Part shown: piece after piece, positions 1,481 to 18,551 of the stretch
Layout: every line of letters begins with the position of its first letter
Numbering within the stretch: position 1 is the first letter of the stretch
DNA from: Alphaproteobacteria bacterium
GTDB lineage: Bacteria; Pseudomonadota; Alphaproteobacteria; MPNO01
DNA length: 64,000 nucleotides
Direction of reading: 5' to 3'
Assembly: GCA_965248835.1 (NCBI GenBank)
Contig: CBDFLJ010000001.1
Span: forward strand, 1,440,001 to 1,504,000
Translations under genes and position numbers: made by a program
The notes under the pieces: generated by a model
What the model was told of the DNA's origin: nothing
Databases searched by the model: none
Seen by the model: only the letters and a program-made list of their open reading frames with translations

Positions 1481-2486
1481 GCCGGCGGTGCCGATCCCGG
1501 TCAACGTGCTGACCGGCTTCCTCGGCAGCGGCAAGACGACGCTGCTGCGGCGCATGCTGGCCGCTCCGGGCATGGGCGAGACCGCGGTGCTAATCAACGA
1601 GTTCGGCGAGGTCGGTCTCGACCATCACCTGATCGAGCACGCGACCGAGAGCACGCTGGTGCTGGAGAACGGCTGCGTGTGCTGCGCCATGCGCGGTGAT
1701 CTGCAGGCCGCCCTGCGCGACCTGCTGTCGCGCCGCGACCGCGGCCAGGTGCCGTATTTCCGGAAGGTCGTCATCGAGACCTCGGGCCTCGCCGATCCGG
1801 TGCCGATCATCTACACCGTGACCGCCGAGCCGGTCATCCGGCACCATTTCCGTATCGGCTCGGTTCTGACGGTCGTCGATGCGGTGAACGGGGCGGCACA
1901 GCTCGACCGGTTCCCGGAATCGGTCAAGCAAGTCGCGGTCGCCGACCGCATCCTTGTCACCAAAACCGACCTTGCGGGCCAAGAGCGGGGGCCGTCCTTG
2001 CGGGCGGTGCTGGGCCGGATCAATTCGGCCTGCGAGATCATCGATTGCACCGAGGTGTTGCCGGCAATCGAGGATCTGCTGGCCGATGGGGCGGCGGTGC
2101 GAGAGTGGGTGAACGGGGCGGCGGCGGCCGATCACGCCCATGCAAGCGGGGTCAGCTCATTCACGATGTGGTTCGACGGCGCGCTCGATTGGACGGCCTT
2201 CGGCATCTGGCTCACCATGCTGCTCAACCGCCACGGCGAGGCGGTGCTCCGCGTCAAGGGCATGCTCAACGTGGCGGGGGTGGCCGATCCCGTGCTGATC
2301 AACGGCGTCCAGCACCTTGTGCACCCGCCGGCCCACCTTGCAAGCTGGCCGGACGAAGACCGGCGCTCGCGGATCGTCTTCATCGTCCGCGATATCGACG
2401 AGGCGCGGATCAGACGATCGCTGGAAGCGTTCAACGCGCTGGCCGCCCGGCGGCCGGGCGATCGGGCTGCTATGCCGGAGGGTTAG
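1473..2486 (+). CDS. COG0523/CobW family G3E GTPase metallochaperone
   Basis: Walker A TGFLGSGKTT, INEFGEVGLDH, GCVCC, ETSGLADP, C-terminal LRVKG..GVQH; GTG 1473 overlaps the upstream stop. Confidence 0.92.
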   Translation: MAEPAVPIPVNVLTGFLGSGKTTLLRRMLAAPGMGETAVLINEFGEVGLDHHLIEHATESTLVLENGCVCCAMRGDLQAALRDLLSRRDRGQVPYFRKVVIETSGLADPVPIIYTVTAEPVIRHHFRIGSVLTVVDAVNGAAQLDRFPESVKQVAVADRILVTKTDLAGQERGPSLRAVLGRINSACEIIDCTEVLPAIEDLLADGAAVREWVNGAAAADHAHASGVSSFTMWFDGALDWTAFGIWLTMLLNRHGEAVLRVKGMLNVAGVADPVLINGVQHLVHPPAHLASWPDEDRRSRIVFIVRDIDEARIRRSLEAFNALAARRPGDRAAMPEG

Positions 2487-3003
2487 CCCGCCCGCCGTTG
2501 TCCCGCAGGCGGCCGTGGCTCGGGCGCCAGCCGGTGCGGAAGGCGCCTACCAATCGATGCAGCAAATAGAACGCGATCGCCAGTAGAATCAGGACGATGA
2601 TCTTCAGGACCAGCCCGCCGAAGATCGGGTCCAGCGTGGCGCCCCGGCTGATCAGGTGCTCGATCAGCATCACCAGCGCCTGCAGGGTCGCGCCGGCGCA
2701 GACGATCACCGCGATCAGGATGGCGATCTGCAGCGTATCGAAGACCAGGCCCTCGGCCCCGAGATCGCCGGTCGCGCGGACGATGTTGTGGCGAAGCGAC
2801 TGCCAGTGGGCGATCACATAGCCGATCAGCCCGACCACGGCAGCGAACCAGAACACGATGTTGGAGGCCCGGACGTCGTCGACGCCGCCGGCGATGAAGG
2901 CCTCAAACGGCTGGTAGAAATAGAGGAACACCAGCACCACCACCAGCCCGGCGGGGACGATCCACAAAAACGGTCTTCTGGGTGAATCGGTGTCGGTGCT
3001 CAT
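2470..3003 (-). CDS. Orphan integral membrane protein, about 4 TM (paralog of 15967-16428)
   Basis: Four long hydrophobic stretches; ATG at 3003 (MSTDTDS); motif-level similarity to 15967-16428. Confidence 0.75.
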   Translation of the reverse strand: MSTDTDSPRRPFLWIVPAGLVVVLVFLYFYQPFEAFIAGGVDDVRASNIVFWFAAVVGLIGYVIAHWQSLRHNIVRATGDLGAEGLVFDTLQIAILIAVIVCAGATLQALVMLIEHLISRGATLDPIFGGLVLKIIVLILLAIAFYLLHRLVGAFRTGWRPSHGRLRDNGGRANPPA

Positions 3004-3077
3004 TGCCCGGCCGGGTCGTCGCCTCGATGACGTCAGCCTATACCAACGCACCCCGCCGCGTCGACCGGCGGACTCCG

Positions 3078-3106
3078 TTGACCACCTGTGACAGGTGGTA
3101 GATCAT
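3078..3106 (+). promoter_or_regulatory. Putative sigma70 promoter (TTGACC-N17-GATCAT) overlapped by perfect palindrome ACCACCTGT-G-ACAGGTGGT (candidate operator)
   Basis: 9-bp perfect inverted repeat at 3081-3089/3091-3099 in the divergent intergenic region upstream of hyuA. Confidence 0.55.
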
Positions 3107-3163
3107 TGAAAGCGAGGCGAAGAACCGGTGATCGGGCCGAAAACGGCGTCTTTGGAACGGGTC

Positions 3164-5221
3164 ATGACAGCGCGTCTTGGTATCGATGTCGGCGGCACTT
3201 TCACCGATCTGTTGCTGTTCGACGACGATTCGGGCGCGATGCACTTCCTCAAGACGCCGTCCACGCCGCACGATCAGTCGATCGGCATCCTGACCGGAAT
3301 CGAGAAGATCCTCGCGGAGTCCGGCATGGCGCCGGCGGACATCCGCGGGCTGCTCCACGGCACCACGGTCTCGACCAATATCGTCCTGGAAGAAAAGGGC
3401 GCGAAGGTCGGCCTGCTGGTGACCGAGAACTTCGAACAGGTCCTCCACCTCGCCCGGTCGCAGACGCCGGGACCGCTTGCGGGCTGGATCACCATGATCA
3501 AGCCCGAGCCGCTGGCCGATCTGGCGCTGACCCGCGGCATCGCCGAGCGGATCAACGCCCGCGGCCAGGTTCTCAAGCCGCTGGAGGAGGAAAGCGCCCG
3601 CGCGGCGGTCCGCGAATTGATCGATCAGGGCGTGGAATCGATCACCATCTCGCTGTTGCACTCCTACGCCAATCCGAGCCACGAGCAGCGCCTGAAAGCG
3701 ATTGCGGAGAGCTTCGACGCGGGACTCCCGCTGTCGCTGTCCTCGGAGATCCTGCCCGAGTTCCGCGAGTACGAGCGCACATTGGTCACGGTCATGAACG
3801 CCTATGTCGGACCCAGCATGCGGAACTATCTGCGGCAGTTCGAAGACAAGCTGCGCGGCATCGCGTTCTCGCCCAAGGTCAACATCGTGCGCTCCGACGG
3901 CGGGCTGATGAGCGTTGCCCGCGCCTCGGAATCGCCGGTGCACACGATGCTGTCCGGGCCGGCGGGCGGAGTCTCCGGAGCTGCGTTCGTCTCGACGATC
4001 GCCGGCCAGACCGATGCGCTGGGCTTCGACATGGGCGGCACGTCGACCGACGTCTCGCTGATCCAGAACGGCCGGCCGACGATCTCGCGCCAGACCACGC
4101 TCGGCTACTATCCGGTCAAGGTGCCCTCGGTCGAGGTCCACAGCGTCGGCGCCGGCGGCGGCTCGATCGCCCATGTGCCGATGACCGGCGCGCTGCGCGT
4201 CGGGCCGGAGAGCGCCGGCGCGGTGCCGGGTCCGGCCTGCTATGGGCGCGGCGGCACCGAGCCCACGGTGACCGATGCCAACGTCGTCCTCGGACGGCTG
4301 CCGCCGATGCTGCTGGGCGGGGAGATGAGACTCGACGTCAACGCCGCCGAGGAGGCGGTCACCAAGGTCGCCCGCGCTCTCGGGCTCGATCCGCTGCAGG
4401 CGGCCCAGGGCATCCTCGACATCGTCAACGAGAACATGTTCGGCGCCCTTCGCCTGGTCACCGTGCAGAAGGGTTTCGACCCGCGCGATTTTGCGCTGGT
4501 CGCCTTCGGCGGGGCGGGTCCGCTGCACGGCAACGCGATCGCCATGCTGGCCGGGTGCTATCCGGTCATTGTGCCGGCCACGCCCGGCGTGCTGTCCGCG
4601 TTGGGCTTTCTGTATTCCGACGTGAAGAACGAGTTCGCCCAGACCTTCATCCGCAACATCGTCGATGCGCAACCCGGCGAGGTCGCCGAGGTGCTCGGCC
4701 GTCTCGGCGGCGAGGCGCGCGGATGGCTGGCCGAGGAGGGTGTGCCGCCGGACGGCCAGGACGTCCATTTCGAGGTCGACGTCCGGTATTTCCGCCAGGG
4801 CTACGAGGTCTCGCTCGAGGTCGCGCCCGACGGGCTCGGCGCCGAGGCGCTGGCCGACATCGGCCGCCGGTTCGGCGCCGTGCACGAGCGGCTCTACGGG
4901 TTCAAGCTGGAGACGCTGGTCGAGCTGGTCAATCTGCGCGCGGTCGGCGTCGGCCGCGTGCCGAAGGTCGATATCCCGCGCTTCGAACACGAGGGCGAGG
5001 ACGCATCGGCCGCCGTCGTCGACCAGCACCGGGTCTATATCGACAACGGCTTCGTCGCGTCGAAGATCTACGACCGCATCCTGCTCCGAGCGGGCAACGT
5101 CATCGCCGGCCCGGCCGTGGTCCAGCAGAAGGATTCAACGACGTTGATCCACCCCGGCCATGTCGGCGTAGTCGATGCGTTTCTGAACATCGTCATTCGT
5201 CCCGAGGCGATGAATGCGTAG
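3164..5221 (+). CDS. hyuA: Hydantoinase/oxoprolinase subunit A (ATP-dependent, HyuA/OplA family)
   Basis: GIDVGGTFTD, HGTTVSTN, EFREYER, SGPAGG, DMGGTSTD, GAGGGSIA, GPESAGA.PGPACYGRGG, FGGAGPLH. Confidence 0.95.
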   Translation: MTARLGIDVGGTFTDLLLFDDDSGAMHFLKTPSTPHDQSIGILTGIEKILAESGMAPADIRGLLHGTTVSTNIVLEEKGAKVGLLVTENFEQVLHLARSQTPGPLAGWITMIKPEPLADLALTRGIAERINARGQVLKPLEEESARAAVRELIDQGVESITISLLHSYANPSHEQRLKAIAESFDAGLPLSLSSEILPEFREYERTLVTVMNAYVGPSMRNYLRQFEDKLRGIAFSPKVNIVRSDGGLMSVARASESPVHTMLSGPAGGVSGAAFVSTIAGQTDALGFDMGGTSTDVSLIQNGRPTISRQTTLGYYPVKVPSVEVHSVGAGGGSIAHVPMTGALRVGPESAGAVPGPACYGRGGTEPTVTDANVVLGRLPPMLLGGEMRLDVNAAEEAVTKVARALGLDPLQAAQGILDIVNENMFGALRLVTVQKGFDPRDFALVAFGGAGPLHGNAIAMLAGCYPVIVPATPGVLSALGFLYSDVKNEFAQTFIRNIVDAQPGEVAEVLGRLGGEARGWLAEEGVPPDGQDVHFEVDVRYFRQGYEVSLEVAPDGLGAEALADIGRRFGAVHERLYGFKLETLVELVNLRAVGVGRVPKVDIPRFEHEGEDASAAVVDQHRVYIDNGFVASKIYDRILLRAGNVIAGPAVVQQKDSTTLIHPGHVGVVDAFLNIVIRPEAMNA

Positions 5222-5241
5222 ATCAAGGAGATCCTTCCGCG

Positions 5242-7542
5242 ATGACTGAGACATGGCGCACCGCCGGGTCGGTTTCGTTCGACGAGCTGTTGAAGGCCAA
5301 CAAGAAACAGTTCGATGAGGTCTTCTCGGTCCAGATGAAGGCGTTCGGGCTGCGCGAAGCTTCCGGCCTGCCGCCGACCGCGGACGCCCTCGGCTCGGCG
5401 AGCCTGGAGGCGAGCAACGGCGCGCCGAACGGCGAGGCGACGGCCAGGCTCAATGCCCGTTTCGGGACGGGCTGGTCGAGCGAGATCGTCGAACACAGCA
5501 TCGACCAGGGCAAGGTCAGCGTGTTGTGCAAGCTCGTGGTCGAGGGTACGACCAGGATGCAGTTCGGCTCGGCCCGGGTGAACGGCGATGCGGGCGCTGC
5601 GCTGCAGCGCGCGACCGAAGAAGCCCTCGAAAAATGCGCCGCTCAGTTCGACGCCGTCCTATCGGCTCTCGAAGGCGAAGACCGCGCGCCGGTGCCGGCC
5701 GAGCCCGCCGAGCCCGCCGCGGCCGCCTCACCGGCGCCGGCGGCAGCGCGGCGCGGCACGGGATCGCGGCTGGATACGATCACGCTGGATCTGATCGAGA
5801 ACGCGCTGCGCAACGCGCGCCACGAGATGGATGCGGTGCTGTTCCGCTCCGCCATGTCGCCGGTCATCCGCGAGCAGCATGACGAGTTCCCGATGCTGAC
5901 CGACGCCAAGGGGCGGATGATCGTCGGCCAGTTCGGCTCCTACGTCCCGGAGATGCTGAAGGAACAGAGCTTCGACCTCTTTCCGGGCGACGTGATCCTG
6001 CAAAGCGATCCGTACAAATGCGGCGGCGCGATCAGCCACATCAACGACTGGATGGTCCTGGTCCCGATCTTCTTCGACGGTGATCTGGTCGGATTCAGCT
6101 CCATGTTCGGCCACATGATGGATGTCGGCGGCCCGGTGCCGGGCAGCATGCCGACCGCCGCGACCTCGATCTTCGGCGAGGGGCTCAGGATTCCGCCGAT
6201 CAAGATCTACGAGCGCGGCGAGGTGAACAAATCCGCGATCGATCTGATCATGAACAACACCCGCACGCCGGAGATGAACTACTCCGACCTGATGGCGATC
6301 GTCGCCGGCTGCCGTGCCGGCGAGCGCCGGGTGGTCGAGATGTGCGAACGCTTCGGCCAGGAGGTCTACAAGCAGGCCTGCGAGGCGTTGCTCGAGCGCA
6401 CCAACCGGGCGATGCGCCAACTCATCGTCCGCAACCTGCCCGAGGAGCCTCAGTCGTTCGAGGACTATGTCGACGACGATGGGCTCGGCAACGGGCCCTT
6501 CAGGATGAAGCTCACCGTCTGGCGTGAAGGGGAGCATGCCTATTTCGACTGGACCGGCACCTCGGCGCAGGCGCCGGGCCCGATCAACTTCTACCTCCAT
6601 GACGGCATGTTCAAGATGTTCATCGGCGTCTACATGATCATGGTCTTCGACCCCCAGATCCTGTTCAACGACGGGTTCTATGACCTGATCCACGTCACGA
6701 TTCCGGACGGCTCGCTGCTGCATCCGAAGTTCCCGGCGGCGCTGGGCTGCCGCACCCACGCTCTGTCGCGCCAGTTCGACGTCCTGGGCGGGGCGCTTTC
6801 GAAGAACGCGCCGGAGATGGCGACCGCGGCCGGCTACGGCTCCAGCCCGCATTTCCTCTATTCCGGGCGCGACGCCAAGGGACGGGACTTCCAGCTCATG
6901 GAGATCCTCTATGGCGGCATCCCGGGGCGCCCGATCGGCGACGGTATGGACGGCCATTCGTGGTGGCCGCTGTTCGAGAACATCCCCAGCGAGTATCTCG
7001 AGAGCTACTACCCGATGGTGATCGAATCCTATGCCAGCGTTCCCGACTCGGGCGGGGCCGGGCTGCACCGCGGCGGCAATGGCATCGAGAAGGTCTATCT
7101 GCTTCTGGAAGGCGGCGAGATTTCCATCCACGACGACCGCCATTTGACCCAGCCGTGGGGGATCCTGGGCGGCAAGCCGGGCGCGTGCTCGCAGAAATGG
7201 CTGGTCCGGGCCGACGGCACGCGCGAGCCGCTGCCATCGAAGATCGACAACGTGCGGGTGCAGGGCGGCGACCGCATCGTGTTCCGCACCGCCGGCGGCG
7301 GAGGTTGGGGCGACCCGCTGGACCGCGCGCCCGAGAAGATCGCTACCGACGTGCGGCGCAAGCTGCTTACGCGCGAGGCGGCGCGCGAGCGCTACGGCGT
7401 GGTCCTGGGCGAGCGGGGCACGTCCGATATCAAGGCGACCGAGGCGTTGCGCGCAAGCCTGCGCTCCAGCCGCCGGCCGCCGGAGACGTTCGACTTCGGC
7501 GACCGCCCCGAAGGAATCGCGAACGGGGTGATCACCGTTTGA
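5242..7542 (+). CDS. hyuB: Hydantoinase/oxoprolinase subunit B (HyuB/OplB family) with ~175-aa N-terminal extension containing a Rad52/22-like domain
   Basis: AAGGAG then ATG 5242; core motifs SPVIREQHD, SDPY..SHINDW, GHMMDVGG.VPGS, EGLRIPP, DSGGAG..RGG, GGGGWGDP begin after about aa 177. Confidence 0.93.
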   Translation: MTETWRTAGSVSFDELLKANKKQFDEVFSVQMKAFGLREASGLPPTADALGSASLEASNGAPNGEATARLNARFGTGWSSEIVEHSIDQGKVSVLCKLVVEGTTRMQFGSARVNGDAGAALQRATEEALEKCAAQFDAVLSALEGEDRAPVPAEPAEPAAAASPAPAAARRGTGSRLDTITLDLIENALRNARHEMDAVLFRSAMSPVIREQHDEFPMLTDAKGRMIVGQFGSYVPEMLKEQSFDLFPGDVILQSDPYKCGGAISHINDWMVLVPIFFDGDLVGFSSMFGHMMDVGGPVPGSMPTAATSIFGEGLRIPPIKIYERGEVNKSAIDLIMNNTRTPEMNYSDLMAIVAGCRAGERRVVEMCERFGQEVYKQACEALLERTNRAMRQLIVRNLPEEPQSFEDYVDDDGLGNGPFRMKLTVWREGEHAYFDWTGTSAQAPGPINFYLHDGMFKMFIGVYMIMVFDPQILFNDGFYDLIHVTIPDGSLLHPKFPAALGCRTHALSRQFDVLGGALSKNAPEMATAAGYGSSPHFLYSGRDAKGRDFQLMEILYGGIPGRPIGDGMDGHSWWPLFENIPSEYLESYYPMVIESYASVPDSGGAGLHRGGNGIEKVYLLLEGGEISIHDDRHLTQPWGILGGKPGACSQKWLVRADGTREPLPSKIDNVRVQGGDRIVFRTAGGGGWGDPLDRAPEKIATDVRRKLLTREAARERYGVVLGERGTSDIKATEALRASLRSSRRPPETFDFGDRPEGIANGVITV

Positions 7543-7573
7543 GGGCGCGCCTGAGCAGGGAGCTGGGAAGACC

Positions 7574-10066
7574 ATGCTGGAGTCCGTAATCATCGCACTC
7601 GTCGTCGCGGTCGTCGTCATCGCGATCGTCTATATCCTGTCGGTGTGGATCTACAAGCGCGCGCCGGCGAACATGGGCTTCGTGCGCACCGGGATGCTCG
7701 GCACCAAGGTGTGCCTGGGCCGCGGTGCGATCGTCCTGCCGGTCTTTCACGAGGTCACGTGGGTCTCGCTGGAGACGATCAAGCTGATCGTCAGCCGCGC
7801 GCGCGAGCAGGCCGTTCTGACCTCCGACAAGATCCGGATCGACGTCGTGGCCGAGCTCTACGCCCATGTCGGCCGGACTCCCGAGGATCTGCTGACCGCG
7901 AGCCGGAGCCTGGGGGAAAAGACATTCGATCCCGACAAGGTCCGCAACCTCCTGGAGGCCAAGGTCGTCAGCGTGTTGAGGAGCTATGCCGCCACCAAGA
8001 CGCTCAGCGAGCTGCACGAGAACCGCGAGGCCATCTCGCGCGAGATGAAGGCCGCGGTCATGGAGAGCTTCCAGGCCAACGGGCTGACGCTCGAGGAAGT
8101 CACGATCGCGGCCCTGGAACAGACCGCGAAGGAGCATTTCAAGCCCGACAACGTCTTCGATGCCGAGGGCCTGAAAATCATCACCGACATCACCTCGGAT
8201 GCCCGCCGCAAGGTCCACGAGACCGAAAAGCGGACCGCGGTCGCGATCCGCCAGCGCGACCTCGACACCCAGCTCGATCTCCTGGAGATCGAAAAGAACG
8301 AAGCGCTCGCCAAGGCGGGTCAGGACAAGACGATCTCCAACGAACAGGCCCAGCAGCTTCGCGAGAAGCAGATCTTCATCCTCGACCAACGCAAGGCGGT
8401 TGAGGAGCGCGAGATCGAGAACGACGTTACCCTGGAGCGCATGCGGACCGACCGCGAGGTCGCGATCACCGAGGAGGCGCAAAAGCGCGAGGTGACCGAG
8501 ATCCAAAAGGAGCTTGCGCTGGAGCAGGAACGCAAGGACCGCGAGATCCAGCTCATCAACAAGGAACGCGAGCGCGAGGCGGCCGAGATCCAGCAGCGCA
8601 CCGCCGTGCTGGCCGAACAGGAGGTCGCCCGCGTGCTGCGCCACCAGGCGAGCGAGGACGCCACCGTCGCCACCCGCAAGCAGAGCGTCGAGGCGCGGCT
8701 GACCGTCCTCGATCTCGAAAAGCAGGAGGAGCTCGCCGCGGCCGGGCAGGAGCGCGACGTCGCCAACGAGAAGGCCCGCGCGCTCAGCGAGCGCCAGCGC
8801 TACATCCTGGAACAGCGCTGGGAGGTCCAGCAGGACGAGATCGACAAGGCCCTGGCACTCGACCGCGCGCAGATCCAGAAAGACGCGGCGGTGGCCGAAG
8901 AGAGCAAGATCCTGGAGGCCGCCGAGGTCCGCCGCGCGCTCGCGCTCGAGCTTGAGGAACGCGACCGCGAGATCGCCCTGATCAGGAAGGAGCAGGAACG
9001 CGAGAAGATCGACATCCAGCGGTTCCTGGGACGCGAGAGGGAGGAGCGCGACCGCGAGATCGCCCTTGTCCGCAAGACCGGAGAGCTCGAGGCGGTCGAG
9101 GTCGAGCGGCTGAAAACGACCGCAGAGAAGGAAAACGCCGAGCACGGCGTGGAGTCGGTGCGCATCCTCGCCGATGCCGAGCGGGACAAGGCGATCGAGC
9201 GCATCGAGGCCGAGAAGCTTGCCGAGGTCCGTCGGATCGACGAGGAGAACAAGGCGCAGATCTCGCGTATGCACATGATCACCCAGGCCGAGGCCCGGCA
9301 GACCTCGGCCGAGCGCGAGGCCGAGGCCACGCTGATCAAGGCGCGCGCCAACAGCGATGCGCAGAAGGTCGCGGCCGAGGGCATCGAGAAGGAGGCCGCG
9401 GCCCCGGGCCGCGCCGAGATGGCGGTCGAATCGCTGCGGGTGGAGAACACCCAGCGCATGCTCGAAGCCGAAGCGACCGGCATCGAGGCCAAGGCCGATG
9501 CGCTCAAGAAGTACAACGAGGCTGCGACCTTCCTGGAGCTGGCCAAGATGTATATCGAGGCCGAGCGCGATGTTCATATCGACCAGGCCAAGGCGATGGG
9601 CACCGCGCTCGGTGGCGCGCAGATCCGCATGTACGGCGGCGGCGACGGCACGGTGGAGACGATCCGCGGCATGTTCACCTCCGGCTTCGGCCTGGGCGAG
9701 GCGCTTGAGGGGCTTGGCCAGTCGATGCCCGAGGGGCTGCGCGAGCGGCTGTCCGCGCAGGGCCTCCGCGGCCTCCTCGGCCTGGCGCCGGGCGAGGCAA
9801 AGCCCGATGTCGAACGGACGCTGCAAAAGACCGTCCAACGGCTCGATGCACTGGCCGCCAAGTCGCTGCGCGGCCAGAAGGCGCGCGCGATGCCGCTGTC
9901 CGAAGCGCTCGCCAAGCTCGAACAGCAGGCCAGCGGCGACGACGAAGCGATTCGGGCCGTCAACACGCTCAAGGGCATGAACCCCGAAGGCGCCTTCGAT
10001 GACCTGCCTTTCGACAAGGTGTGGGCGCTGCTTCAGAGCGTGGCGCAGGCGCCCAGCCAGGCTTGA
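7574..10066 (+). CDS. SPFH/band-7 flotillin-like protein (YqiK/FloT-like) with a greatly elongated, internally repeated coiled coil
   Basis: N-terminal TM helix, YKRA..NMGFVRTG..G.KV...GAIVLPVFH, SPFH core, NVFDAEG, E/R/K/A-rich region of about 450 aa, AEA..IEAKA.AL. Confidence 0.9.
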   Translation: MLESVIIALVVAVVVIAIVYILSVWIYKRAPANMGFVRTGMLGTKVCLGRGAIVLPVFHEVTWVSLETIKLIVSRAREQAVLTSDKIRIDVVAELYAHVGRTPEDLLTASRSLGEKTFDPDKVRNLLEAKVVSVLRSYAATKTLSELHENREAISREMKAAVMESFQANGLTLEEVTIAALEQTAKEHFKPDNVFDAEGLKIITDITSDARRKVHETEKRTAVAIRQRDLDTQLDLLEIEKNEALAKAGQDKTISNEQAQQLREKQIFILDQRKAVEEREIENDVTLERMRTDREVAITEEAQKREVTEIQKELALEQERKDREIQLINKEREREAAEIQQRTAVLAEQEVARVLRHQASEDATVATRKQSVEARLTVLDLEKQEELAAAGQERDVANEKARALSERQRYILEQRWEVQQDEIDKALALDRAQIQKDAAVAEESKILEAAEVRRALALELEERDREIALIRKEQEREKIDIQRFLGREREERDREIALVRKTGELEAVEVERLKTTAEKENAEHGVESVRILADAERDKAIERIEAEKLAEVRRIDEENKAQISRMHMITQAEARQTSAEREAEATLIKARANSDAQKVAAEGIEKEAAAPGRAEMAVESLRVENTQRMLEAEATGIEAKADALKKYNEAATFLELAKMYIEAERDVHIDQAKAMGTALGGAQIRMYGGGDGTVETIRGMFTSGFGLGEALEGLGQSMPEGLRERLSAQGLRGLLGLAPGEAKPDVERTLQKTVQRLDALAAKSLRGQKARAMPLSEALAKLEQQASGDDEAIRAVNTLKGMNPEGAFDDLPFDKVWALLQSVAQAPSQA
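8237..9088 (+). repeat. Protein-level tandem duplication (142-aa / 426-nt period) with a 29-aa DRE(I/V) sub-period inside the flotillin coiled coil
   Basis: AVAIRQ (8237) vs TVATRK (8663); DREIQLINKERERE (8537) vs DREIALIRKEQERE (8963); DRE codons at 8450/8537 and 8963/9050 are each 87 nt apart. Confidence 0.8.
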
Positions 10067-10078
10067 GGCGGGGCTGCG

Positions 10079-11164: not shown

Positions 11165-11226
11165 GGCTTCGGTGCGGCCCGGCTTGCCGGGGACATGCGC
11201 CAGACCCCGCACGGTCCGAAATCCGT

Positions 11227-12054: not shown

Positions 12055-12055
12055 C

Positions 12056-13036
12056 TCAGAGCTCCTTGCGGATGTTGACCACGCGCAGGATCATCACCAC
12101 GCCGATCATCATCGCCAGCATCAGCATGATCGCGTTGACCGCGGCGAAGGGATAGTTGGCGATGGCATAGTAGTTGAGGATCACGGTGCCGGTGGTCGAT
12201 GTCTTGCCGCCATAGACCACCACGGCGGTTGCGAACTCGCCCATGATCATCACGAAGATGAAGATCAGCCCGATGGCGACGCCCGGCAGGGACAGGGGGC
12301 CGATGATCTCGCGAAAGATCTGGAACGAGCTCGCGCCCATGTCGCGCGCGGCATCGATGATCGACCTGTCGATCTTGGCCAGCGAGAAGAAGATCGGCCC
12401 GACGATCAGGACGACATAGAGTTGGACCAGGGCCATGGTGTAGCCGAATTCCGAATAGAGCAGGAAGCCGACCGGTTTGTCGACGATGTCGAGATTGACC
12501 AGCAGCTTGTTGAGCAGCCCGCGTCGGCCCAGCATCGGCAGCCAGGCCACCGCGCGGATCAGGTAGCTGGTCCAGAACGGCACCATCGAGATCAGGAACA
12601 GCGCGAGCTGCCACTTGAACGACTCGACCTGGAAGGCGAGGAAATAGGCGATCGGGAAACCGACGATCAGGCAGAAGAACATCACCACCAGCGCGAAGCG
12701 CAGCGTCGTTCCGAGCGTCTGGATATAGATCGAAAGGGACAGGAACCGGTCCGAGGATGGATCGAAGAAACCCTCGGTCCGGAAGAAGTCGTCGTAGTGC
12801 TGGAGCGTCAGGTCGGGCGCCATGCCATAGCCGGTCGCCTTCCAGAAACTGAACACCACGATTCCGACCAGCGGCAGGACCAGAAAGAGGATCAGCCACG
12901 CCGCGGCCGGGCTGATCAGCCAATAGACCGGAAACCCCTGCGCGCGGCGCGGCTTGTCCGACCCGGCACGCTGGGCGGCCGGTGCCGCGCGGCCGCCGAT
13001 CAGGCCCGGGCGCGCCGTCTGTCCGAGCTGGCTCAC
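12056..13036 (-). CDS. ABC transporter permease, PotB-like
   Basis: PFWTSYLIRAVAW, IDAARDMGAS, PLSLPG; start uncertain. Confidence 0.92.
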   Translation of the reverse strand: MSQLGQTARPGLIGGRAAPAAQRAGSDKPRRAQGFPVYWLISPAAAWLILFLVLPLVGIVVFSFWKATGYGMAPDLTLQHYDDFFRTEGFFDPSSDRFLSLSIYIQTLGTTLRFALVVMFFCLIVGFPIAYFLAFQVESFKWQLALFLISMVPFWTSYLIRAVAWLPMLGRRGLLNKLLVNLDIVDKPVGFLLYSEFGYTMALVQLYVVLIVGPIFFSLAKIDRSIIDAARDMGASSFQIFREIIGPLSLPGVAIGLIFIFVMIMGEFATAVVVYGGKTSTTGTVILNYYAIANYPFAAVNAIMLMLAMMIGVVMILRVVNIRKEL

Positions 13037-13059
13037 GGTGTTGGCGGCCGGTCAGGAAT

Positions 13060-13088
13060 GCGGGCGGGCCCGCGACGATCCCGCCCGC
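13060..13088 (-). other. GC-rich stem-loop between binding-protein and permease genes (probable mRNA-stabilising/attenuating hairpin)
   Basis: GCGGGCGGG (13060-13068) and CCCGCCCGC (13080-13088) form a 9-bp stem; no clear U-tract. Confidence 0.45.
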
Positions 13089-13104
13089 GCGCACCGGTCT
13101 GCCG

Positions 13105-14385
13105 TCAAGCGCTGAGGAACTCCGTCCAGCGCTTGACCAAGTAGTCGTTCTCCTTCATCAGCGAGTTCCAGACCGCGATGTTCTTGAAGCGGTTCCAATA
13201 GGAGCCGCCGTCGCGGACCTCGCCCTTCTCGACGATCGGCGTGCCGAAGGGGTCGTTGAGCTCTCCTGCCGCCGGTTTGCCCATGTACCAGAAGTCCCAT
13301 TCCTCCGGCGTGAGGTGCTGCTTGACGTTTTCCGGCACCGACATGTAGTAGCCCTGACGGGCGACGAACGCGCCGGGCCAGCCGCTCATCCACCAGTTGA
13401 TATAGTCATAGGCCGCATCGAGCTTCTTGCCGGTCACCTTGGCCGAGATCGCAAGCCCGCCGTGCCAGCCGCGCATGCCTTCCTTGGGGAAGGCGTAGAC
13501 GCAGGGCACGCCCTCGGCCTTGACTGCGGTGACCGCCGGCGACCACATCGACTGGACCGCGACCTCGCCGGAGACCATCAGGTTGACCGACTGGCCGAAG
13601 GTCTCCCAGAAGGCGCGGAAATGGCCCTCTTTCTTGCGCTTGATCAGGAAATCGATCAGGAAGTCGATTTCCTCGCGGGTCATGTCGCCCTTGTCCTTGA
13701 ATTTGAGCAGCCCCATCGCCTCGATGGCGAGCGCTGCATCCATGGTGCCGATCTGCGGCACGTTGAGCAGCGCGACCTTGCCCTTGAAGTCCGCGGAGAA
13801 CAGCTCGGCCCAGCTTTCGATCTTGCGGCCGGTCTCGTCCGGGTTGTAGCCGATCGAATCGGCGTTGTGCCAGCCGGGTACCATCGAGATGTAGCGCGAC
13901 GGCCCGTTGACCCGGTTGCCGTCCTTGTCGAGCCAGAGATGGCGGAACGGCGCATCGCCCTGGCCGGGATTGGACTCCGGCGTCAGCCGGCCGGTCTTTG
14001 TAAGGTCGGTGACCTTGTCCCAGTCCTTGATGCGCTGCGTGTCGATCGGCTGCCACACCTTGGCAGGGATGAACACGTCGCAGTCGTTGTAATAACCTTC
14101 GGCGATCTCGTACTGATCGTTCTGGTTGAGCATCTTGCCGAACATCGCGCCATAGCCCAGCGCCTGGCCGCGCACCTGCATGCCGAGATCCTTGCCGGCG
14201 CGGCCCTGAATCTCGTTGATGATGCTCACGCCGAGGCCGATCGTCCGGATGGACTCGGCGCCAAACGCAATGCTGGGAAAGCCGCCTGCCGCGCCCGCGG
14301 CGAGCGCCGCGGCGGACGTGCCGACGAATGTGCGGCGCCTCACGCGCCGGGGTTTGCTGATGTCCGTCTTGAGCTTGTCCGACAT
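13105..14385 (-). CDS. ABC substrate-binding protein, PotD/PotF-like, Tat-exported
   Basis: Twin-arginine RRRTFVG plus Ala-rich signal; NADSIGYNPD, SWAELF, MWSPA, PKEG.RGW; GGAGG upstream of ATG 14385. Confidence 0.9.
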   Translation of the reverse strand: MSDKLKTDISKPRRVRRRTFVGTSAAALAAGAAGGFPSIAFGAESIRTIGLGVSIINEIQGRAGKDLGMQVRGQALGYGAMFGKMLNQNDQYEIAEGYYNDCDVFIPAKVWQPIDTQRIKDWDKVTDLTKTGRLTPESNPGQGDAPFRHLWLDKDGNRVNGPSRYISMVPGWHNADSIGYNPDETGRKIESWAELFSADFKGKVALLNVPQIGTMDAALAIEAMGLLKFKDKGDMTREEIDFLIDFLIKRKKEGHFRAFWETFGQSVNLMVSGEVAVQSMWSPAVTAVKAEGVPCVYAFPKEGMRGWHGGLAISAKVTGKKLDAAYDYINWWMSGWPGAFVARQGYYMSVPENVKQHLTPEEWDFWYMGKPAAGELNDPFGTPIVEKGEVRDGGSYWNRFKNIAVWNSLMKENDYLVKRWTEFLSA

Positions 14386-14486
14386 TTGAGCCTCCATCTT
14401 ATCCGAGACGATTAGGACATTTTCTGAACCCTCTGACAATATGGGCCGGCAAAAAGGATTTTGGGAAAGCGGCCTGGGAGGTGCGG

Positions 14487-15920
14487 GTGAGCGTATTGAT
14501 CAAGGGCGGCAGGATCGTCACCGCAGCCGATGACTACCATGCCGACATCTTCGCGGCCGACGCCACGGTGAGCCTGATCGGCACCGACCTGACGATTGAG
14601 GCCGATGAGGTGATCGATGCGGCGGGGAAGCTGGTCATCCCGGGCGGCGTCGATCCGCACACCCATCTCGAGCTTCCCTTCGGCGGCACGACGACCTCGG
14701 ACACCTTCGAGTCCGGCACCCGGGCGGCGGCGTTCGGCGGCACGACCTGCATCGTCGACTTCGCCGTCCAGTCGCGCGGTATTTCAATGCTGGAATCGCT
14801 CGATAGCTGGCATGCCAAGGCCGCCGGCAAGACCGCGATCGACTACGGCTTCCACATGATCGTTACCGACCTGCCCGAGGAGCGGGTGCCGGAGATGCGC
14901 CGCCTGTCGGACGAGGGGATCACCAGCTACAAGCTGTTCATGGCCTATCCCGGGGCGCTGCTGTCCGATGACGGGACGATCTTCCGGGCGATGCGCAAGG
15001 CCGGCCAGGACGGCACCCTGGTCTGCATGCACGCCGAGAACGGCATCGTGATCGACGAGCTGATCAGGATCGCGCTGGCCGAGGGCCATATCGAGCCCAA
15101 ATACCACGCGGTCACGCGTCCGACCCGGCTGGAGGCCGAAGGCACTCACCGCGCGCTCGCGATCGCCGAGGTCGCACGCGCGCCGGTCTATATCGTCCAC
15201 CTCAGCGCCTTTGACGCGCTCAAGGAACTGCGCGATGCCCAGGCACGCGGCGTGATGGCCCACGCCGAGACCTGCCCGCAATACCTGCTGCTGGACGTCG
15301 GCGCCTATGACGAGCCCGGCTTCGACGGCGCGAAATACGTGCTGACCCCGCCGCTGCGCGAGAAATGGAACCAGGACGAGCTGTGGCGCGGACTGCGGAG
15401 CGGCGATCTGCACGTGATCTCGACCGACCATTGCCCGTTCTGCCTCAAGGAGCAGAAGGAGCTGGGCCTGGACGATTTCTCCAAGATCCCCAACGGCGGG
15501 CCGGGCATCGAGAACCGGATGAGCCTGATCTATCACAACGGCGTCGGCGAGGGCCGGATCACCCTCAACAAGTTTGTCGAGCTGACCTCGACCGCGCCGG
15601 CCAGGATCTTCGGACTGTTCCCGCGCAAGGGCACCATCGCGGTGGGCTCGGACGCCGATATCGTCATCTTCGATCCCGACCGGTCGGAGACCATCAGCGT
15701 CCACAACCCGCGGACCCACCACATGAACATCGACTACAGCGCCTACGAAGGCTTCACGGTCAAGGGCTATACCGAGACCGTGATCTCACGCGGCAAGATC
15801 ATCGTCGACAAGGGCGCGTATGTCGGCCGGCCGGGCGATGGGATGTTCATCAAGCGCGGCCCCTATGGCGGGCTCTACGCCGCGCAGACCTCGCGCGCCG
15901 CGCGCGAGCGCTCCGCCTGA
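14487..15920 (+). CDS. hydA: Dihydropyrimidinase / D-hydantoinase
   Basis: PGGVDPHTH, GGTTCIVDF, SYKLFMAY (carbamylated Lys), HAENG, HAETCPQYL, STDHCPF, KIPNG.PGIE.R. Confidence 0.95.
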   Translation: MSVLIKGGRIVTAADDYHADIFAADATVSLIGTDLTIEADEVIDAAGKLVIPGGVDPHTHLELPFGGTTTSDTFESGTRAAAFGGTTCIVDFAVQSRGISMLESLDSWHAKAAGKTAIDYGFHMIVTDLPEERVPEMRRLSDEGITSYKLFMAYPGALLSDDGTIFRAMRKAGQDGTLVCMHAENGIVIDELIRIALAEGHIEPKYHAVTRPTRLEAEGTHRALAIAEVARAPVYIVHLSAFDALKELRDAQARGVMAHAETCPQYLLLDVGAYDEPGFDGAKYVLTPPLREKWNQDELWRGLRSGDLHVISTDHCPFCLKEQKELGLDDFSKIPNGGPGIENRMSLIYHNGVGEGRITLNKFVELTSTAPARIFGLFPRKGTIAVGSDADIVIFDPDRSETISVHNPRTHHMNIDYSAYEGFTVKGYTETVISRGKIIVDKGAYVGRPGDGMFIKRGPYGGLYAAQTSRAARERSA

Positions 15921-15966
15921 AGGTCGCTGGCGCCGGCATCGATATCCGGCGCAACCCGGCCGGCGC

Positions 15967-16428
15967 TCAGGCGGAGGCCAGGCGGACCAGCTTCAGGAGC
16001 CAGAAGATAACGCAGAAGATCCCGGTCAGGACCACCAGCAGAACCACCGCGCCGAGGCGGTCGCCGAACCCCGCGCTGAGCACCGCGCCGTCGCGCAGCA
16101 GATAGACGCACAGGATCTGCACCGCCTGCAAGGCGGCGCCCGCGCTCAGCAGGATCGCCACGAACACCGAGCCTTGCAGCGAGCTCAGCACCATCGCCTC
16201 GATCGACCGCTGCCGGGTGATGTGCAGCCGGTAGGCCCGCCAGTGATAGCCGCAGAACCCGATCACCGCGATGACCAGCGCCGCCCAGAAGATGTCGTTG
16301 CCGTAGTCGATGCCGTTGAAGACCAGGCTGAACAGGTCCGCGAACGGTTTGTAAAAGAACAGAAAGATCAGGACGATGATGAAGACCAGGAACCCGACCA
16401 GCGTCCAGAACCATTGCCACCCTGTCAT
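15967..16428 (-). CDS. Orphan integral membrane protein, about 4 TM (paralog of 2470-3003)
   Basis: Hydrophobic 153-aa ORF sharing FLxFYxPF, FW, HW, LQ and AGAxLQA motifs with 2470-3003. Confidence 0.8.
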   Translation of the reverse strand: MTGWQWFWTLVGFLVFIIVLIFLFFYKPFADLFSLVFNGIDYGNDIFWAALVIAVIGFCGYHWRAYRLHITRQRSIEAMVLSSLQGSVFVAILLSAGAALQAVQILCVYLLRDGAVLSAGFGDRLGAVVLLVVLTGIFCVIFWLLKLVRLASA

Positions 16429-16488
16429 GTCGTCACCGCTGCGGGACCGCTTGTTGGGGCACCGTTTTACCCGATCGGCCGCACGCCG

Positions 16489-17535
16489 TCATTCGCCGGT
16501 TGCCGGCAGCGCGACCAGAAGAAGAACGCCGTAGAGCAGGAAGAATACGGCATCCTTGACCGCCGGCATCCCGTGGCGCGCCTGCGCGCGCGCGCTCAAG
16601 AGGACGGCAAGCTCCAGGATGAAGAACCCCAGCGACAGATAGAAGATCGGCCACAGGGTCTGCCACCACGAGATGCCGTCGGGCGTGGCCACGCCCTGGC
16701 TCGCGCGCCAGATTACCAGAAGGACCGGTGCGAGCGTGACATAGGCATAGCCCAGCAGGAACCGCATCCGCCCGGCGGTTCGATCGATGATCCAGAAGAC
16801 GACAAGCACGGCGAGGATCTGGACGGTGTCCCAGAACAGCGCGACGTATTTCCCGTCCGCGCCGGACTCCGCGAGGTTGACGAAGCCCAACACCAGCAGG
16901 AACGCCAGCCCGTCGCAGAACAACCATTCCCGGAACGATTCGGCGCTCTGCTTCCCTGCCTCGGCGCGCGAAGCCTTGTCGAGGATGAGCACGAGGATGA
17001 CCGCGAACGCACCCGGATAGGCGAGCGATAGCATCAGCCGGTATCGCTGGGCGCCGGCGACATAGGTCCAGTTCAGCAGCAGCAGGGCCGCGATCAGGAT
17101 CGCGATCCCGACCACGGGGACGAACAGCGAGGACCCGGTGCGCTCGGCCGCTTCCTGCGCCGGCGCGGCGACGGCGCCGGTGCGTGCGCGCATCCAGACG
17201 ACGACCAGGAATCCGAGGACCGCAAGCCCGGCGGCGATCAGCATGACGACGAAGAACGACGATGCGCCGGTCTGGGTACGCCAGGGGCCGCTTTTGCCCT
17301 CCCCGAGGGAGAGGGGATCGAGCTGCCAGACCAGCACCGCGCAGGCCACGACCAGCAGCGTAGCGGCCAGGATCATCGGGTAATGTGCCCCGACCGGATG
17401 CCGCGCCGGAACGTCCGGCGCAGCGCCGTCGGCCGCGCGGCCCCACCTGGCGACCGCCGCAATCACGAAGCAGACCAGCGCCAGGACGGCGATGCCGCCC
17501 ATTACCTCCAGGAAGGCGATCGAGCGGCTATCCAT
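16489..17535 (-). CDS. Orphan polytopic membrane protein (about 10 TM) with duplicated N-terminal 2-TM unit
   Basis: Repeated hydrophobic segments; co-oriented between the nitrilase gene and the 4-TM paralog. Confidence 0.78.
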   Translation of the reverse strand: MDSRSIAFLEVMGGIAVLALVCFVIAAVARWGRAADGAAPDVPARHPVGAHYPMILAATLLVVACAVLVWQLDPLSLGEGKSGPWRTQTGASSFFVVMLIAAGLAVLGFLVVVWMRARTGAVAAPAQEAAERTGSSLFVPVVGIAILIAALLLLNWTYVAGAQRYRLMLSLAYPGAFAVILVLILDKASRAEAGKQSAESFREWLFCDGLAFLLVLGFVNLAESGADGKYVALFWDTVQILAVLVVFWIIDRTAGRMRFLLGYAYVTLAPVLLVIWRASQGVATPDGISWWQTLWPIFYLSLGFFILELAVLLSARAQARHGMPAVKDAVFFLLYGVLLLVALPATGE

Positions 17536-17567
17536 CGCCGGACCGTGCTGAGGCCGGGTGTGCCGTC

Positions 17568-18431
17568 TCAGATTCGGACCAGAGGCTCATAGGTCTCCGG
17601 CCGCCGGTCACGATAGAACTGCCAGAGGTTGCGCACCTCGCGCACGACCTCGAGATCCATCTCGCAGGTGAGGACCTCGTCCCGGTCCTCGCTCGCCTGG
17701 GCGAGGATCCTGCCGCGCGGGTCGGCGAAGTAGCTGGCGCCGTAGAACCGGCCGATCTCCCACGGCGTCTCGGTGCCGATGCGGTTGACCGCGCCGACGA
17801 AATAGCCGTTGGCGACGGCGGCGGCGGGCTGTTCGAGCTCCCATAGATGGCGGCTCAGCCCGGCCACGGTGGCCGATGGGTTGACGACGTACTCCGCGCC
17901 CGCCAGGCCCAGCGCCCGCCAGCCTTCCGGGAAATGCCGGTCGTAGCAGATGTAGACCGCGAGCCGGCAAAAGGCGGTCTCGAACACCGGATAACCCGCG
18001 TTGCCGGGCTTGAAGAAGAATTTTTCGTAAAATCCCGCAACCTGCGGGATGTGGTGCTTGCGGTACTTGCCGAGGTATCGGCCGTCGGCGTCGATCACCG
18101 CGGCGGTGTTGTAATAGACCCCGGTGGTCTCCTCCTCGTAGATCGGCACGACGATGACCATGCCATGCGCCCTGGCCTGTTCCTGCATCAGCCGGACGGT
18201 CGGGCCGTCGGGGACGGGCTCGGCCGCGCCGTACCATCTGGTGTCCTGGCTGGGACAGAAATAGGGCTGGTTGAAGACCTCCTGCAGGCACAGCACCTGG
18301 ACGCCGCGGGCTGCGGCTTCGGCGATCAGCGGCAGGTGCGCCTCGTTCATGATGTCGCGGATCCGCTCCGGCGGCTCCTCGGTGCCGGCCTTGAGAGCCA
18401 TCTGGATCAGCCCGCCCTTGAGCATGCTCAT
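17568..18431 (-). CDS. Nitrilase-family beta-ureidopropionase / N-carbamoyl amidohydrolase
   Basis: Catalytic triad motifs CLQEVF, YRKHHIP, ICYDRHFPEGWR; EKFFFKPGN; NPSATV. Confidence 0.9.
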   Translation of the reverse strand: MSMLKGGLIQMALKAGTEEPPERIRDIMNEAHLPLIAEAAARGVQVLCLQEVFNQPYFCPSQDTRWYGAAEPVPDGPTVRLMQEQARAHGMVIVVPIYEEETTGVYYNTAAVIDADGRYLGKYRKHHIPQVAGFYEKFFFKPGNAGYPVFETAFCRLAVYICYDRHFPEGWRALGLAGAEYVVNPSATVAGLSRHLWELEQPAAAVANGYFVGAVNRIGTETPWEIGRFYGASYFADPRGRILAQASEDRDEVLTCEMDLEVVREVRNLWQFYRDRRPETYEPLVRI

Positions 18432-18551
18432 GCCCGCCTCCCCCAATGCGCCGGCATCGCCTTGCGAGCGGTGTCATACCATCTGGCGGCGCCCGGCGAC
18501 AGGCGCGCAAGCCGCCCGCGATACCATGTCTCCCGCGTCACGCGATCCTGC

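Follow-up and report, generated by a model that had tools for sequence, protein, structure and literature searches.

A conserved SPFH-centred gene module with a Rad52-like HyuB extension in alphaproteobacterial hydantoinase clusters

In 64,000 nucleotides (nt) of the genome of an Alphaproteobacteria bacterium (GTDB lineage MPNO01; GenBank assembly GCA_965248835.1, contig CBDFLJ010000001.1, positions 1,440,001 to 1,504,000; hereafter the window), a gene for an 830-residue protein with an SPFH domain lies in a row with the genes for an ATP-dependent hydantoinase, hyuA and hyuB, and for an ABC transporter ATPase. The initial annotation, made from the letters of the window, had proposed that this flotillin-like protein scaffolds a complex for the uptake and catabolism of cyclic amides. 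We find that the SPFH gene is no incidental neighbour of the hydantoinase genes. Its location between hyuB and the ATPase gene is constant over the genome and metagenome loci surveyed, and it is accompanied by a Rad52-like N-terminal extension of HyuB and by three orphan membrane proteins, here called memA1, memA2 and memB. The module is real, conserved and apparently undescribed, and comparison of sequences across genomes supports well the view that it is a functional unit centred on the SPFH protein.

Conservation of the module and the pathway around it

SPFH orthologs (E <1e-100) were found in 17 of 400 alphaproteobacterial genomes, spread over 11 GTDB families, and 208 metagenome stretches encode a relative; the system is not rare. 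We took 20 kb round each of the 17 SPFH genes, which together with two further loci gave 19 genome loci. The gene order HyuA-HyuB-SPFH-ATPase, on one strand, is kept in 19/19, with gaps of -13 to 108 nt between HyuB and SPFH and of 7 to 55 nt between SPFH and the ATPase gene. Among the best 80 of the 208 metagenome stretches, counting only loci with enough flank, HyuB is directly 5' of SPFH wherever at least 700 nt of upstream flank is available (64/64), the ATPase gene is directly 3' wherever there are at least 500 nt downstream (73/73), and memA1 lies farther upstream in every locus whose upstream flank reaches 5.7 kb (37/37).

The other components follow the SPFH gene. HyuB residues 1-177, used as a query, matched the same 17 genomes and 0 of the 383 others. 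A query with memA2 also matched the same 17, with exactly two copies in each (memA1 and memA2), and found none in the other 383; memB is present in 17/17, the search being confined to those genomes. A synteny survey was the first check that the initial annotation had suggested, and over the 400 genomes the long SPFH protein, the Rad52-like HyuB extension and the pair of four-transmembrane proteins are identical in presence and absence. No SPFH ortholog was found in 40 close relatives of the window's genome, a complete genome of the same genus included (seven have paralogs at no more than 39% identity), nor in a phylum-level sample (0/300 genomes at E 1e-60).

The module genes of the window are the following.

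2470..3003, reverse strand (open reading frame open to GTG 3051): memA1, orphan protein with about four transmembrane (TM) segments, divergent from hyuA
3078..3106, forward strand: sigma-70-like promoter match, 9/12 hexamer matches, just 5' of hyuA
3128..5221, forward strand: hyuA, ATP-dependent hydantoinase/oxoprolinase A subunit; Pfam Hydantoinase_A E 2.1e-95, Hydant_A_N E 5.6e-50
5242..7542, forward strand: hyuB, whole gene, 766 residues; Pfam Hydantoinase_B at residues 178-692
5242..5772, forward strand: N-terminal extension of HyuB (the tag), comprising helix, linker, Rad52-fold domain and Pro/Ala linker
5773..7542, forward strand: catalytic part of HyuB; Pfam Hydantoinase_B E 8.8e-150
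7574..10066, forward strand: SPFH gene, 830 residues; Pfam Band_7 (PF01145) at residues 38-181, 58.6 bits against a cut-off of 23.6
10079..11164, forward strand: PotA/MalK-like ABC ATPase, last gene of the apparent operon; Pfam ABC_tran E 1.1e-34
15967..16428, reverse strand: memA2, orphan four-TM paralog of memA1
16489..17535, reverse strand: memB, orphan membrane protein with about ten TM segments

Genes were called from the list of open reading frames (ORFs) of the window and annotated by Pfam and NCBIfam, with 19 ORFs put through Pfam. The ORF calls reproduce exactly the gaps of 20, 31 and 12 nt in the hyuA-hyuB-SPFH-ATPase row that the initial annotation had given, and the ORF map likewise shows the ATPase gene converging on genes for permeases and a solute-binding protein (SBP). 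A Shine-Dalgarno-like purine-rich stretch precedes each of the three downstream genes, hyuB, SPFH and ATPase. A consensus scan found no forward-strand terminator-like site in the operon gaps, which is weak evidence, as is the promoter match, the only promoter-like site in 2300-18600 (1 found against 1.8 expected in shuffles). The likelier start of hyuA is ATG 3164, as a start 12 codons downstream of that of the longest ORF is conserved in most orthologs, and memA1 probably starts at the conserved ATG 3003 rather than at GTG 3051.

The remaining genes of the cluster encode enzymes, a putative metallochaperone and the rest of the importer.

87..1133, forward strand: CE4 polysaccharide-deacetylase-like hydrolase; Pfam Polysacc_deac_1 E 1.3e-16
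1449..2486, forward strand: CobW-family GTPase, putative metallochaperone; Pfam cobW E 4.9e-44, CobW_C E 1.6e-24
11227..12054, reverse strand: PermC, convergent with the ATPase gene; Pfam and NCBIfam
12056..13036, reverse strand: PermB; Pfam and NCBIfam
13105..14439, reverse strand: PotD-like SBP; Pfam and NCBIfam
14481..15920, forward strand: dihydropyrimidinase/D-hydantoinase; NCBIfam TIGR02033, 601 bits against a cut-off of 393
17568..18446, reverse strand: CN hydrolase, beta-ureidopropionase-like; Pfam CN_hydrolase E 8.3e-62

The dihydropyrimidinase, the ureidopropionase and the three orphan membrane proteins that the initial annotation had placed at the flanks are thus present, the two enzymes with named families (TIGR02033, CN_hydrolase) and the three membrane proteins with none. 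The conserved cluster also extends to the left of position 2470, where that annotation began: the CE4 and CobW genes (87-1133 and 1449-2486) are part of it and are syntenic in most related loci. Some loci carry 1.5-6.6 kb of extra genes between the ATPase gene and PermC (L012:13915-20515, L045:12373-18485, L047-L049), so this convergent junction is a variable spot.

Clusters that lack the SPFH gene separate the module from the pathway. When 370 genomes of the class were sampled, those with an SBP ortholog at 71-85% identity all bore SPFH (n=15), and 27 SPFH-less genomes had an SBP homolog at 39-57% identity. We examined the clusters of 10 of these 27. SPFH, memA and memB are absent from all 10 loci, and so is the HyuB extension, also by profile search of six frames; the three that bear HyuAB have an untagged HyuB. 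The expectation that the components form a co-occurring set therefore held in these clusters as well, since those without SPFH are also without memA, memB and the tag. One such cousin (L168) reads SBP-PermB-PermC-ATPase-HyuA-HyuB and adjoins CE4 (78% identity), CobW and dihydropyrimidinase genes; another (L169) has the transporter, CobW, CE4, dihydropyrimidinase and CN hydrolase (73% identity). The ATPase gene in cousin clusters is grouped with the permease genes and does not follow SPFH. A base pathway thus exists independently of the SPFH gene. To judge from these comparisons it consists of a PotABCD-like importer, HyuAB, dihydropyrimidinase, beta-ureidopropionase, the CE4 hydrolase and CobW, and SPFH, memA1, memA2, memB and the HyuB extension appear to have been gained or lost together as a five-part add-on to it.

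The gene content indicates uptake of a cyclic ureide or amide and opening of its ring, the compound being of dihydropyrimidine, hydantoin or lactam type. HyuA, with Hydantoinase_A and Hydant_A_N, and HyuB, with Hydantoinase_B, belong to the hydantoinase/oxoprolinase family over their full length, and share its domains with N-methylhydantoinase, caprolactamase CapAB and the acetophenone and acetone carboxylases. The closest solved relatives of HyuB are N-methylhydantoinase 7hk5 (E 9.8e-74) and caprolactamase 6yra (E 1.9e-65), and no solved relative aligns with HyuB residues 1-163. HyuAB falls below the caprolactamase equivalogs (alpha 518 and beta 254 bits against a cut-off of 1000 each) and below the acetophenone carboxylase equivalog; as it is below every equivalog cut-off, we assign it no substrate. 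The dihydropyrimidinase scores as a member of its equivalog, TIGR02033, and among solved proteins the CN hydrolase is closest to the beta-ureidopropionases 2vhh, 8pt4 and 6ftq. The ATPase scores 347 bits against NCBIfam PotA, below its cut-off of 482. By hydropathy HyuB, the SBP and the ATPase have no TM segment, and HyuA has one weak internal hydrophobic stretch. The closest solved relative of the CE4 protein, 3qbu/4ly4 (E 1.5e-146), was deposited as a peptidoglycan deacetylase. The CE4 gene keeps a fixed place by those for CobW, dihydropyrimidinase and beta-ureidopropionase, in SPFH-less clusters too, which suggests that its product acts in the catabolism of ureides or amides and not on the cell wall.

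The cluster is a catabolic island of ~18 kb, conserved and patchy in its distribution, and is probably mobile by horizontal transfer. Its SBP, like its SPFH protein, is absent from all 40 close relatives searched; being in none of these and yet in distant families, the island moves or is lost as a block. Synteny with a same-genus genome (G002) resumes at ~18556, right after the CN hydrolase gene, which marks the right border; the syntenic region starts at PurK (18552-19625), at 81-83% DNA identity. The left flank of G002 maps to scattered positions on the two contigs of the window's genome, which shows heavy rearrangement between these genomes, and of the island's borders only the right one is clear. 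This patchy distribution, absent from the same genus and present in distant families, is what one would see if SPFH and the orphan genes had merely been co-transferred with the island. We find such hitch-hiking scarcely credible, because the operon order stays fixed (64/64 and 73/73 above) while protein identity drops to 53-67%, because one component is fused to an enzyme, and because the cousins lack all the add-on parts together.

The SPFH protein and the orphan membrane proteins

The SPFH protein belongs to the SPFH/Band 7 superfamily, with Band_7 above the gathering score and, in a low-confidence AlphaFold2 (AF2) model, an anchor and a long helical region. It is far from the FloT equivalog NF058507 (19.6 bits against a cut-off of 700), and it does not have the hallmarks of HflK/C, as its cluster has only one SPFH gene and none for a protease (FtsH). 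Members of its sizeable and well-conserved family are 804-1023 residues long and 53-87% identical, with a mean column identity of 67% in the family alignment (A3), and database names of relatives are limited to 'SPFH domain-containing' or 'YqiK'. Sequence comparison with the PDB gave 0 matches at E 0.001 for the A3 profile and weak stomatin matches only (E 0.02-0.4) for the SPFH domain alone, so that a fold search was needed to place the protein. The best folds are the flotillin complex 9l3g/9bq2 (Foldseek E 1.9e-5), stomatin, prohibitin, HflK/C, erlin and vault, all of them cage-forming.

Hydropathy predicts one TM segment, residues 4-22. The AF2 monomer has a TM helix at residues 2-29 (7577-7660), the SPFH domain at 36-183 (7679-8122), a helix of 327 residues at 197-523 (8162-9142), a second helix of 149 residues at 532-680 (9167-9613) and a C-terminal helical domain at 693-824 (9650-10045), which is better defined (pLDDT 71-86 over 750-820). 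No positive residue precedes the TM helix and Lys-Arg directly follows it. By the positive-inside rule this charge pattern would put most of the protein on the cytoplasmic side of the membrane, where HyuAB and the ATPase are too.

The lengths of family members vary in a regular way. Over 34 members, every large indel falls in the long helix and spans an exact multiple of 29 residues (29, 58, 87, 116 or 145), and total lengths cluster at 822/826, 851/852, 909-915, 936-946, 963-966, 994 and 1023 residues. The window's protein is shorter than the 1023-residue form by 58 + 145 residues. Comparison of the protein with itself reveals a duplication of ~142 residues, with weaker lags of 29 and 11. At ~0.15 nm per helical residue, 29 residues correspond to ~4.3 nm. 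If the assembly is like that of flotillin, its wall would be considerably taller than flotillin's and tunable in fixed steps.

The initial annotation had recognised no NfeD partner, and none of the cluster ORFs matches NfeD; the one PF01957 match of the whole genome (C1:1779023-1779184) lies ~330 kb off. The membrane proteins of the module are instead the three orphans. memA1 and memA2 had been called paralogs, and they are indeed 35% identical over 110 residues (E 5e-21). Hydropathy gives ~4 TM segments for each of them and ~10 for memB, and the termini of memA1 are positively charged. No Pfam or NCBIfam family was found for any of the three (Pfam at E up to 10 returned noise only), and Atlas searches with memA2 and memB gave no named family. 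A search for a Rosetta-stone fusion of memA1 returned one 320-residue protein, whose extra N-terminal part resembles an over-extended gene call.

With ~10 TM segments, memB could be a permease of an uncharacterised family, and neither it nor memA has a recognisable family. SPFH, memA and memB might be an independent device that is required while the pathway operates, for example a product exporter, a sensor or a shield of the membrane from the substrate, making no direct contact with HyuAB or the importer. This is quite unlikely in our view: the SPFH gene lies between hyuB and the ATPase gene and not beside memA2 and memB, and the cytoplasmic HyuB tag has the same phyletic profile.

The Rad52-fold extension of HyuB

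HyuB had been described as Rad52-like, and Pfam, fold and profile searches all confirm it. Pfam Rad52_Rad22 matches HyuB residues 65-140 with E 3.6e-4, a borderline 20.9 bits against a cut-off of 20.3, and covers profile positions 36-130 of 153, the ~70-residue core of the Rad52 N-terminal domain; a fragment of an ortholog (P0122) reaches 23.3 bits. An alignment of 17 HyuB orthologs (A1) divides the tag into a conserved helix at residues 12-35 (5275-5346), a variable linker, the Rad52-fold domain at 64-135 (5431-5646) and a Pro/Ala-rich low-complexity linker at 136-177 (5647-5772) that leads into Hydantoinase_B. The AF2 model of the domain is alpha-beta-beta-beta-alpha with pLDDT 83-90. Its top folds are human and yeast Rad52 and Mgm101, with a Foldseek E of 1.4e-4 and VIA Z scores of 9.3 (root-mean-square deviation, rmsd, 7.5 with 82 residues aligned), 8.8 (rmsd 1.6, 70 aligned) and 8.7; generic alpha-beta3-alpha folds rank next, at a VIA Z of ~7.

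A profile of the HyuB extension (A2) found 833 cluster representatives at E <=0.001 among 1.84 billion proteins. When 37 of the matches were scanned with Pfam, some proved to be genuine Rad52_Rad22 proteins (lowest E 6.8e-18), Hydantoinase_B was present in 15 as full HyuB fusions or fragments, and an isochorismatase domain and an NTF2-like domain in one each; all 8 complete small proteins, of 142-195 residues, had no Pfam family. Given the Pfam match, the fold and the profile link, 'Rad52-like' is correct as a statement of homology.

The position of the tag varies among loci. It is N-terminal on HyuB in most of them, and an additional free-standing copy of the module (153-191 residues) occurs in at least 19 loci, usually 5' of the CE4 gene. 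HyuB keeps the helix alone in L058, L090, L124, L125 and L149; for L125 the Rad52-fold domain is provided by a free-standing copy, and for L058 by one in L075, a locus of that genome, where it immediately follows memA1. L139, L140, L145, L148, L151, L156 and L158 have a second HyuB with the domain at the C-terminus, and L078 has one with the domain at the N-terminus and no helix. In a quick maximum-likelihood tree of 30 HyuB catalytic domains, the C-terminally tagged second HyuBs stand apart from the main tagged clade (starred branches) and are sister to untagged HyuBs of SPFH-less clusters. The divergent HyuAB of L047-L049 and L129 had been considered as a separately recruited lineage, which we dropped as the same quick tree nests it within the main tagged clade, on a long branch.

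Because the module is mobile, found at either HyuB terminus and free-standing, it appears to behave as a portable docking or oligomerisation unit rather than as catalytic machinery. A nucleic-acid role, such as binding of single-stranded DNA or RNA by an autoregulator of the operon at the level of translation or transcription, with an indirect link to SPFH, would fit the real Rad52/Rad22 homology, the reach of the A2 profile into Rad52_Rad22 proteins (E 6.8e-18 above) and the Rad52/Mgm101 folds, and the alpha-beta3-alpha arrangement is also that of dsRNA-binding domains. The tag has the beta-beta-beta-alpha core in common with Rad52, Rad22 and Mgm101. It comprises only the ~70-residue core, joined by a Pro/Ala linker to a metabolic enzyme, and the module is found on either terminus of HyuB or by isochorismatase-type hydrolases, not by recombination or phage genes, and we regard retention of a nucleic-acid role as very improbable.

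Several further occurrences of the module were noted. The window's genome has a second, free-standing homolog of 175 residues (profile E 4.3e-10; G000:C1:44885-45442, reverse strand, corresponding to L172:7882-8409), 1.4 Mb from the cluster. On one side it has a gene for an isochorismatase-family hydrolase and on the other that of a luciferase-like monooxygenase, after which comes an FAA hydrolase gene, and the pairing of isochorismatase and monooxygenase resembles RutB/RutA of pyrimidine degradation. In another genome (G046, L077) the free-standing module likewise follows an isochorismatase gene, and one protein (P0233) is an isochorismatase-module fusion. In the same genome G046, at L077:855-1340 on the reverse strand, the tag helix is fused to a peroxiredoxin-like, seemingly shortened protein beside an IS-type transposase gene; it could be one more enzyme with a tag, or else an artefact of rearrangement. 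In the metagenome loci L088, L092, L098, L101, L103, L122 and L126, at their left ends, a second HyuA-like gene (38-49% identity) adjoins the free-standing module 5' of CE4, and a second HyuA'B' pair lies at the right end of L139, L140, L145, L148 and L151. More than one HyuAB-type enzyme may thus be associated with the module.

A proposed mechanism and its relation to known systems

The explanation that we consider best, and to which we give slightly better than even chances, is an SPFH assembly on the membrane with memA and memB in the place of NfeD, HyuAB docked by the tag and the importer adjacent. Gene content and order, co-occurrence, domain homologies and the modularity of the tag are observed; the oligomer form, the topology, every protein contact and the substrate we infer. 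The SPFH protein would be anchored by its N-terminal helix with the bulk in the cytoplasm, and would oligomerise into a barrel or dome on the inner membrane face whose wall height is set by the 29-residue helix units. memA1, memA2 and memB would sit in the patch of membrane below or next to it. Docking of the ~300-kDa HyuAB to this structure would be the task of HyuB's N-terminal helix and Rad52-fold domain, and the free-standing module may serve as an adaptor. The importer, whose ATPase gene is presumably co-transcribed with SPFH, would pass substrate directly to the ATP-dependent ring-opening step. All the proposed soluble partners are predicted from their sequences to be cytoplasmic.

A fuller version of this explanation is a membrane-attached cage that faces the cytoplasm and is far taller than flotillin's, with a height fixed in 29-residue (~4 nm) quanta, into or onto which enzymes (HyuAB, the second HyuA'B' and possibly isochorismatase-type amidases) are loaded by the Rad52-derived tag, with memA and memB as its floor and the importer feeding in. 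We hold it to be possible but tentative. The initial annotation had pictured a flotillin that may enclose or organise the importer together with the enzyme, and such enclosure is an inference.

The main rival is an importer platform, a membrane microdomain or quality-control device in which SPFH with memA1, memA2 and memB stabilises or gates the PotABCD-like importer, much as stomatin acts on channels or flotillins on membrane complexes, HyuAB is neither enclosed nor docked and the tag serves only the self-oligomerisation of HyuAB. It would account for the ATPase gene, which always follows SPFH (73/73) but accompanies the permease genes in the cousins, and for the restriction of high-identity SBP orthologs to SPFH genomes; Rad52-family domains are known ring formers, and the top folds of the tag are ring structures. 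It leaves unexplained why the tag tracks SPFH (17/17, and not found in the other 383 genomes), why the tag occurs on two HyuB lineages and free-standing, only in SPFH-type clusters, and why HyuB is untagged in the three HyuAB-bearing SPFH-less cousins. We therefore rate the importer platform as unlikely.

Several points count against docking of HyuAB to an SPFH assembly. The 17 SPFH genomes are related to each other, so the co-occurrence counts are not independent trials and overstate independence, and absence in other genomes was called from searches with one query each, at E 1e-5 to 1e-100. Some genomes have the Rad52-fold domain unfused to HyuB, and so covalent tethering alone cannot explain everything. 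The N-terminal tag helix has a moderate hydrophobic moment of 0.28-0.54, mostly not above shuffles, and we accordingly do not claim a clear amphipathic targeting helix. For the SPFH protein, the AF2 monomer has a low mean pLDDT of 61, which makes the helix lengths and the oligomer shape uncertain. A complex prediction with the full-length SPFH protein (A3) and the HyuB extension (A2) scored 0.00, with the controls also unfolded, and speaks neither for nor against binding.

How SPFH/flotillin scaffolds choose their clients is a long-standing open question, and to our knowledge it is mostly proteomics that has revealed the clients of bacterial SPFH proteins, apart from HflK/C-FtsH and the NfeD partners. 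The system described here offers a genetically defined candidate client, HyuAB, with a removable candidate recognition element, the helix and Rad52-fold module. Three dedicated membrane partners replace NfeD, and the length variants of the wall helix and the SPFH-less cousins are natural controls, so that client recruitment and cage geometry can be tested directly through the tag, the length variants and the cousins. The system also points to an undescribed way of organising a metabolic enzyme at the bacterial membrane. If the enzymes are enclosed, bacteria would have, next to encapsulins and microcompartments, a third type of protein compartment, and a DNA-repair fold would have been reused as a protein-sorting tag. 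Such a metabolic nanocompartment of prokaryotes, built on SPFH and with a cargo tag encoded in the genome, would be an organelle of a kind so far undescribed. We read the system as an SPFH scaffold with a dedicated client set; true enclosure of the enzymes would make it new in category.

Among bacterial flotillins, FloT/YuaG with NfeD2, FloA with NfeD1b and Escherichia coli YqiK with YqiJ resemble the window's protein in their N-terminal anchor, SPFH domain, long helices and predicted cytoplasmic orientation. Proteins of the FloT/FloA/YqiK type have ~500-550 residues, whereas this family has 830-1023; the window's cluster has no NfeD gene but two four-TM paralogs, a ten-TM protein and the Rad52-fold module, and the SPFH gene lies inside a catabolic operon, between the genes for an enzyme and a transporter ATPase. 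HflK/C-FtsH (7wi3, 7vhq, 9cz2), a fold match, is likewise an SPFH assembly with a dedicated, genetically linked client. The HflK/C cage is periplasmic and its client is a membrane protease; the bulk of the window's SPFH protein is predicted to be cytoplasmic, the candidate client is a tagged soluble amidohydrolase, and there is no FtsH gene.

The tag also invites comparison, by analogy only, with encapsulin loading peptides, microcompartment encapsulation peptides and the vault INT domain, of which the module is not a member. Cargo tags of encapsulins, microcompartments and vaults are short helices or small domains on flexible linkers. The HyuB extension is alike in having a short helix and/or small domain on a flexible, poorly conserved linker, at either terminus of an enzyme and only where a candidate shell gene is present. 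No encapsulin or bacterial microcompartment shell family was found by Pfam among the 19 cluster ORFs scanned; the putative shell here is a membrane-anchored SPFH protein, and its binding of the tag is a proposal.

The initial annotation knew of no described flotillin in a hydantoinase operon, and the open full-text literature, with subscription-only papers outside our scope, yielded none: we found no publication on an SPFH protein or flotillin with a hydantoinase, or on Rad52 with a hydantoinase. Flotillin with oxoprolinase gave no description of the system. SPFH was absent among the matches listed for HyuAB-family terms, and for flotillin with gene cluster, ABC transporter, operon and catabolism none of the matches listed was relevant by title or abstract.

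Of solved structures, eukaryotic flotillin-1/2 (9bq2, 9l3g) is the top match to the window's SPFH protein. It is reported to form a membrane-attached, right-handed helical barrel of 22 pairs, 32 nm to 19 nm wide (10.1101/2024.05.09.593390, PMC13000311). Its chains have ~420 residues and form a heteromeric pair, whereas here there is a single SPFH gene with a predicted wall helix of 327 residues, and up to 7 more 29-residue units in relatives.

The closest published parallel that we found is the flotillin-associated rhodopsin (FAR) island of SAR11, HIMB59 and Pseudothioglobus (PMC10308929). This is also patchy, ~26 kb long, and has a flotillin gene in fixed synteny together with membrane transporters and amide metabolism genes (PxpA-like and N,N-dimethylformamidase). 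It differs in having a rhodopsin gene 16 nt from a flotillin gene of 1,977 bp and no HyuAB, and the available part of the paper describes no enzyme tag, memA or memB. Its authors propose that the flotillin organises the products of the island (PMC10308929).

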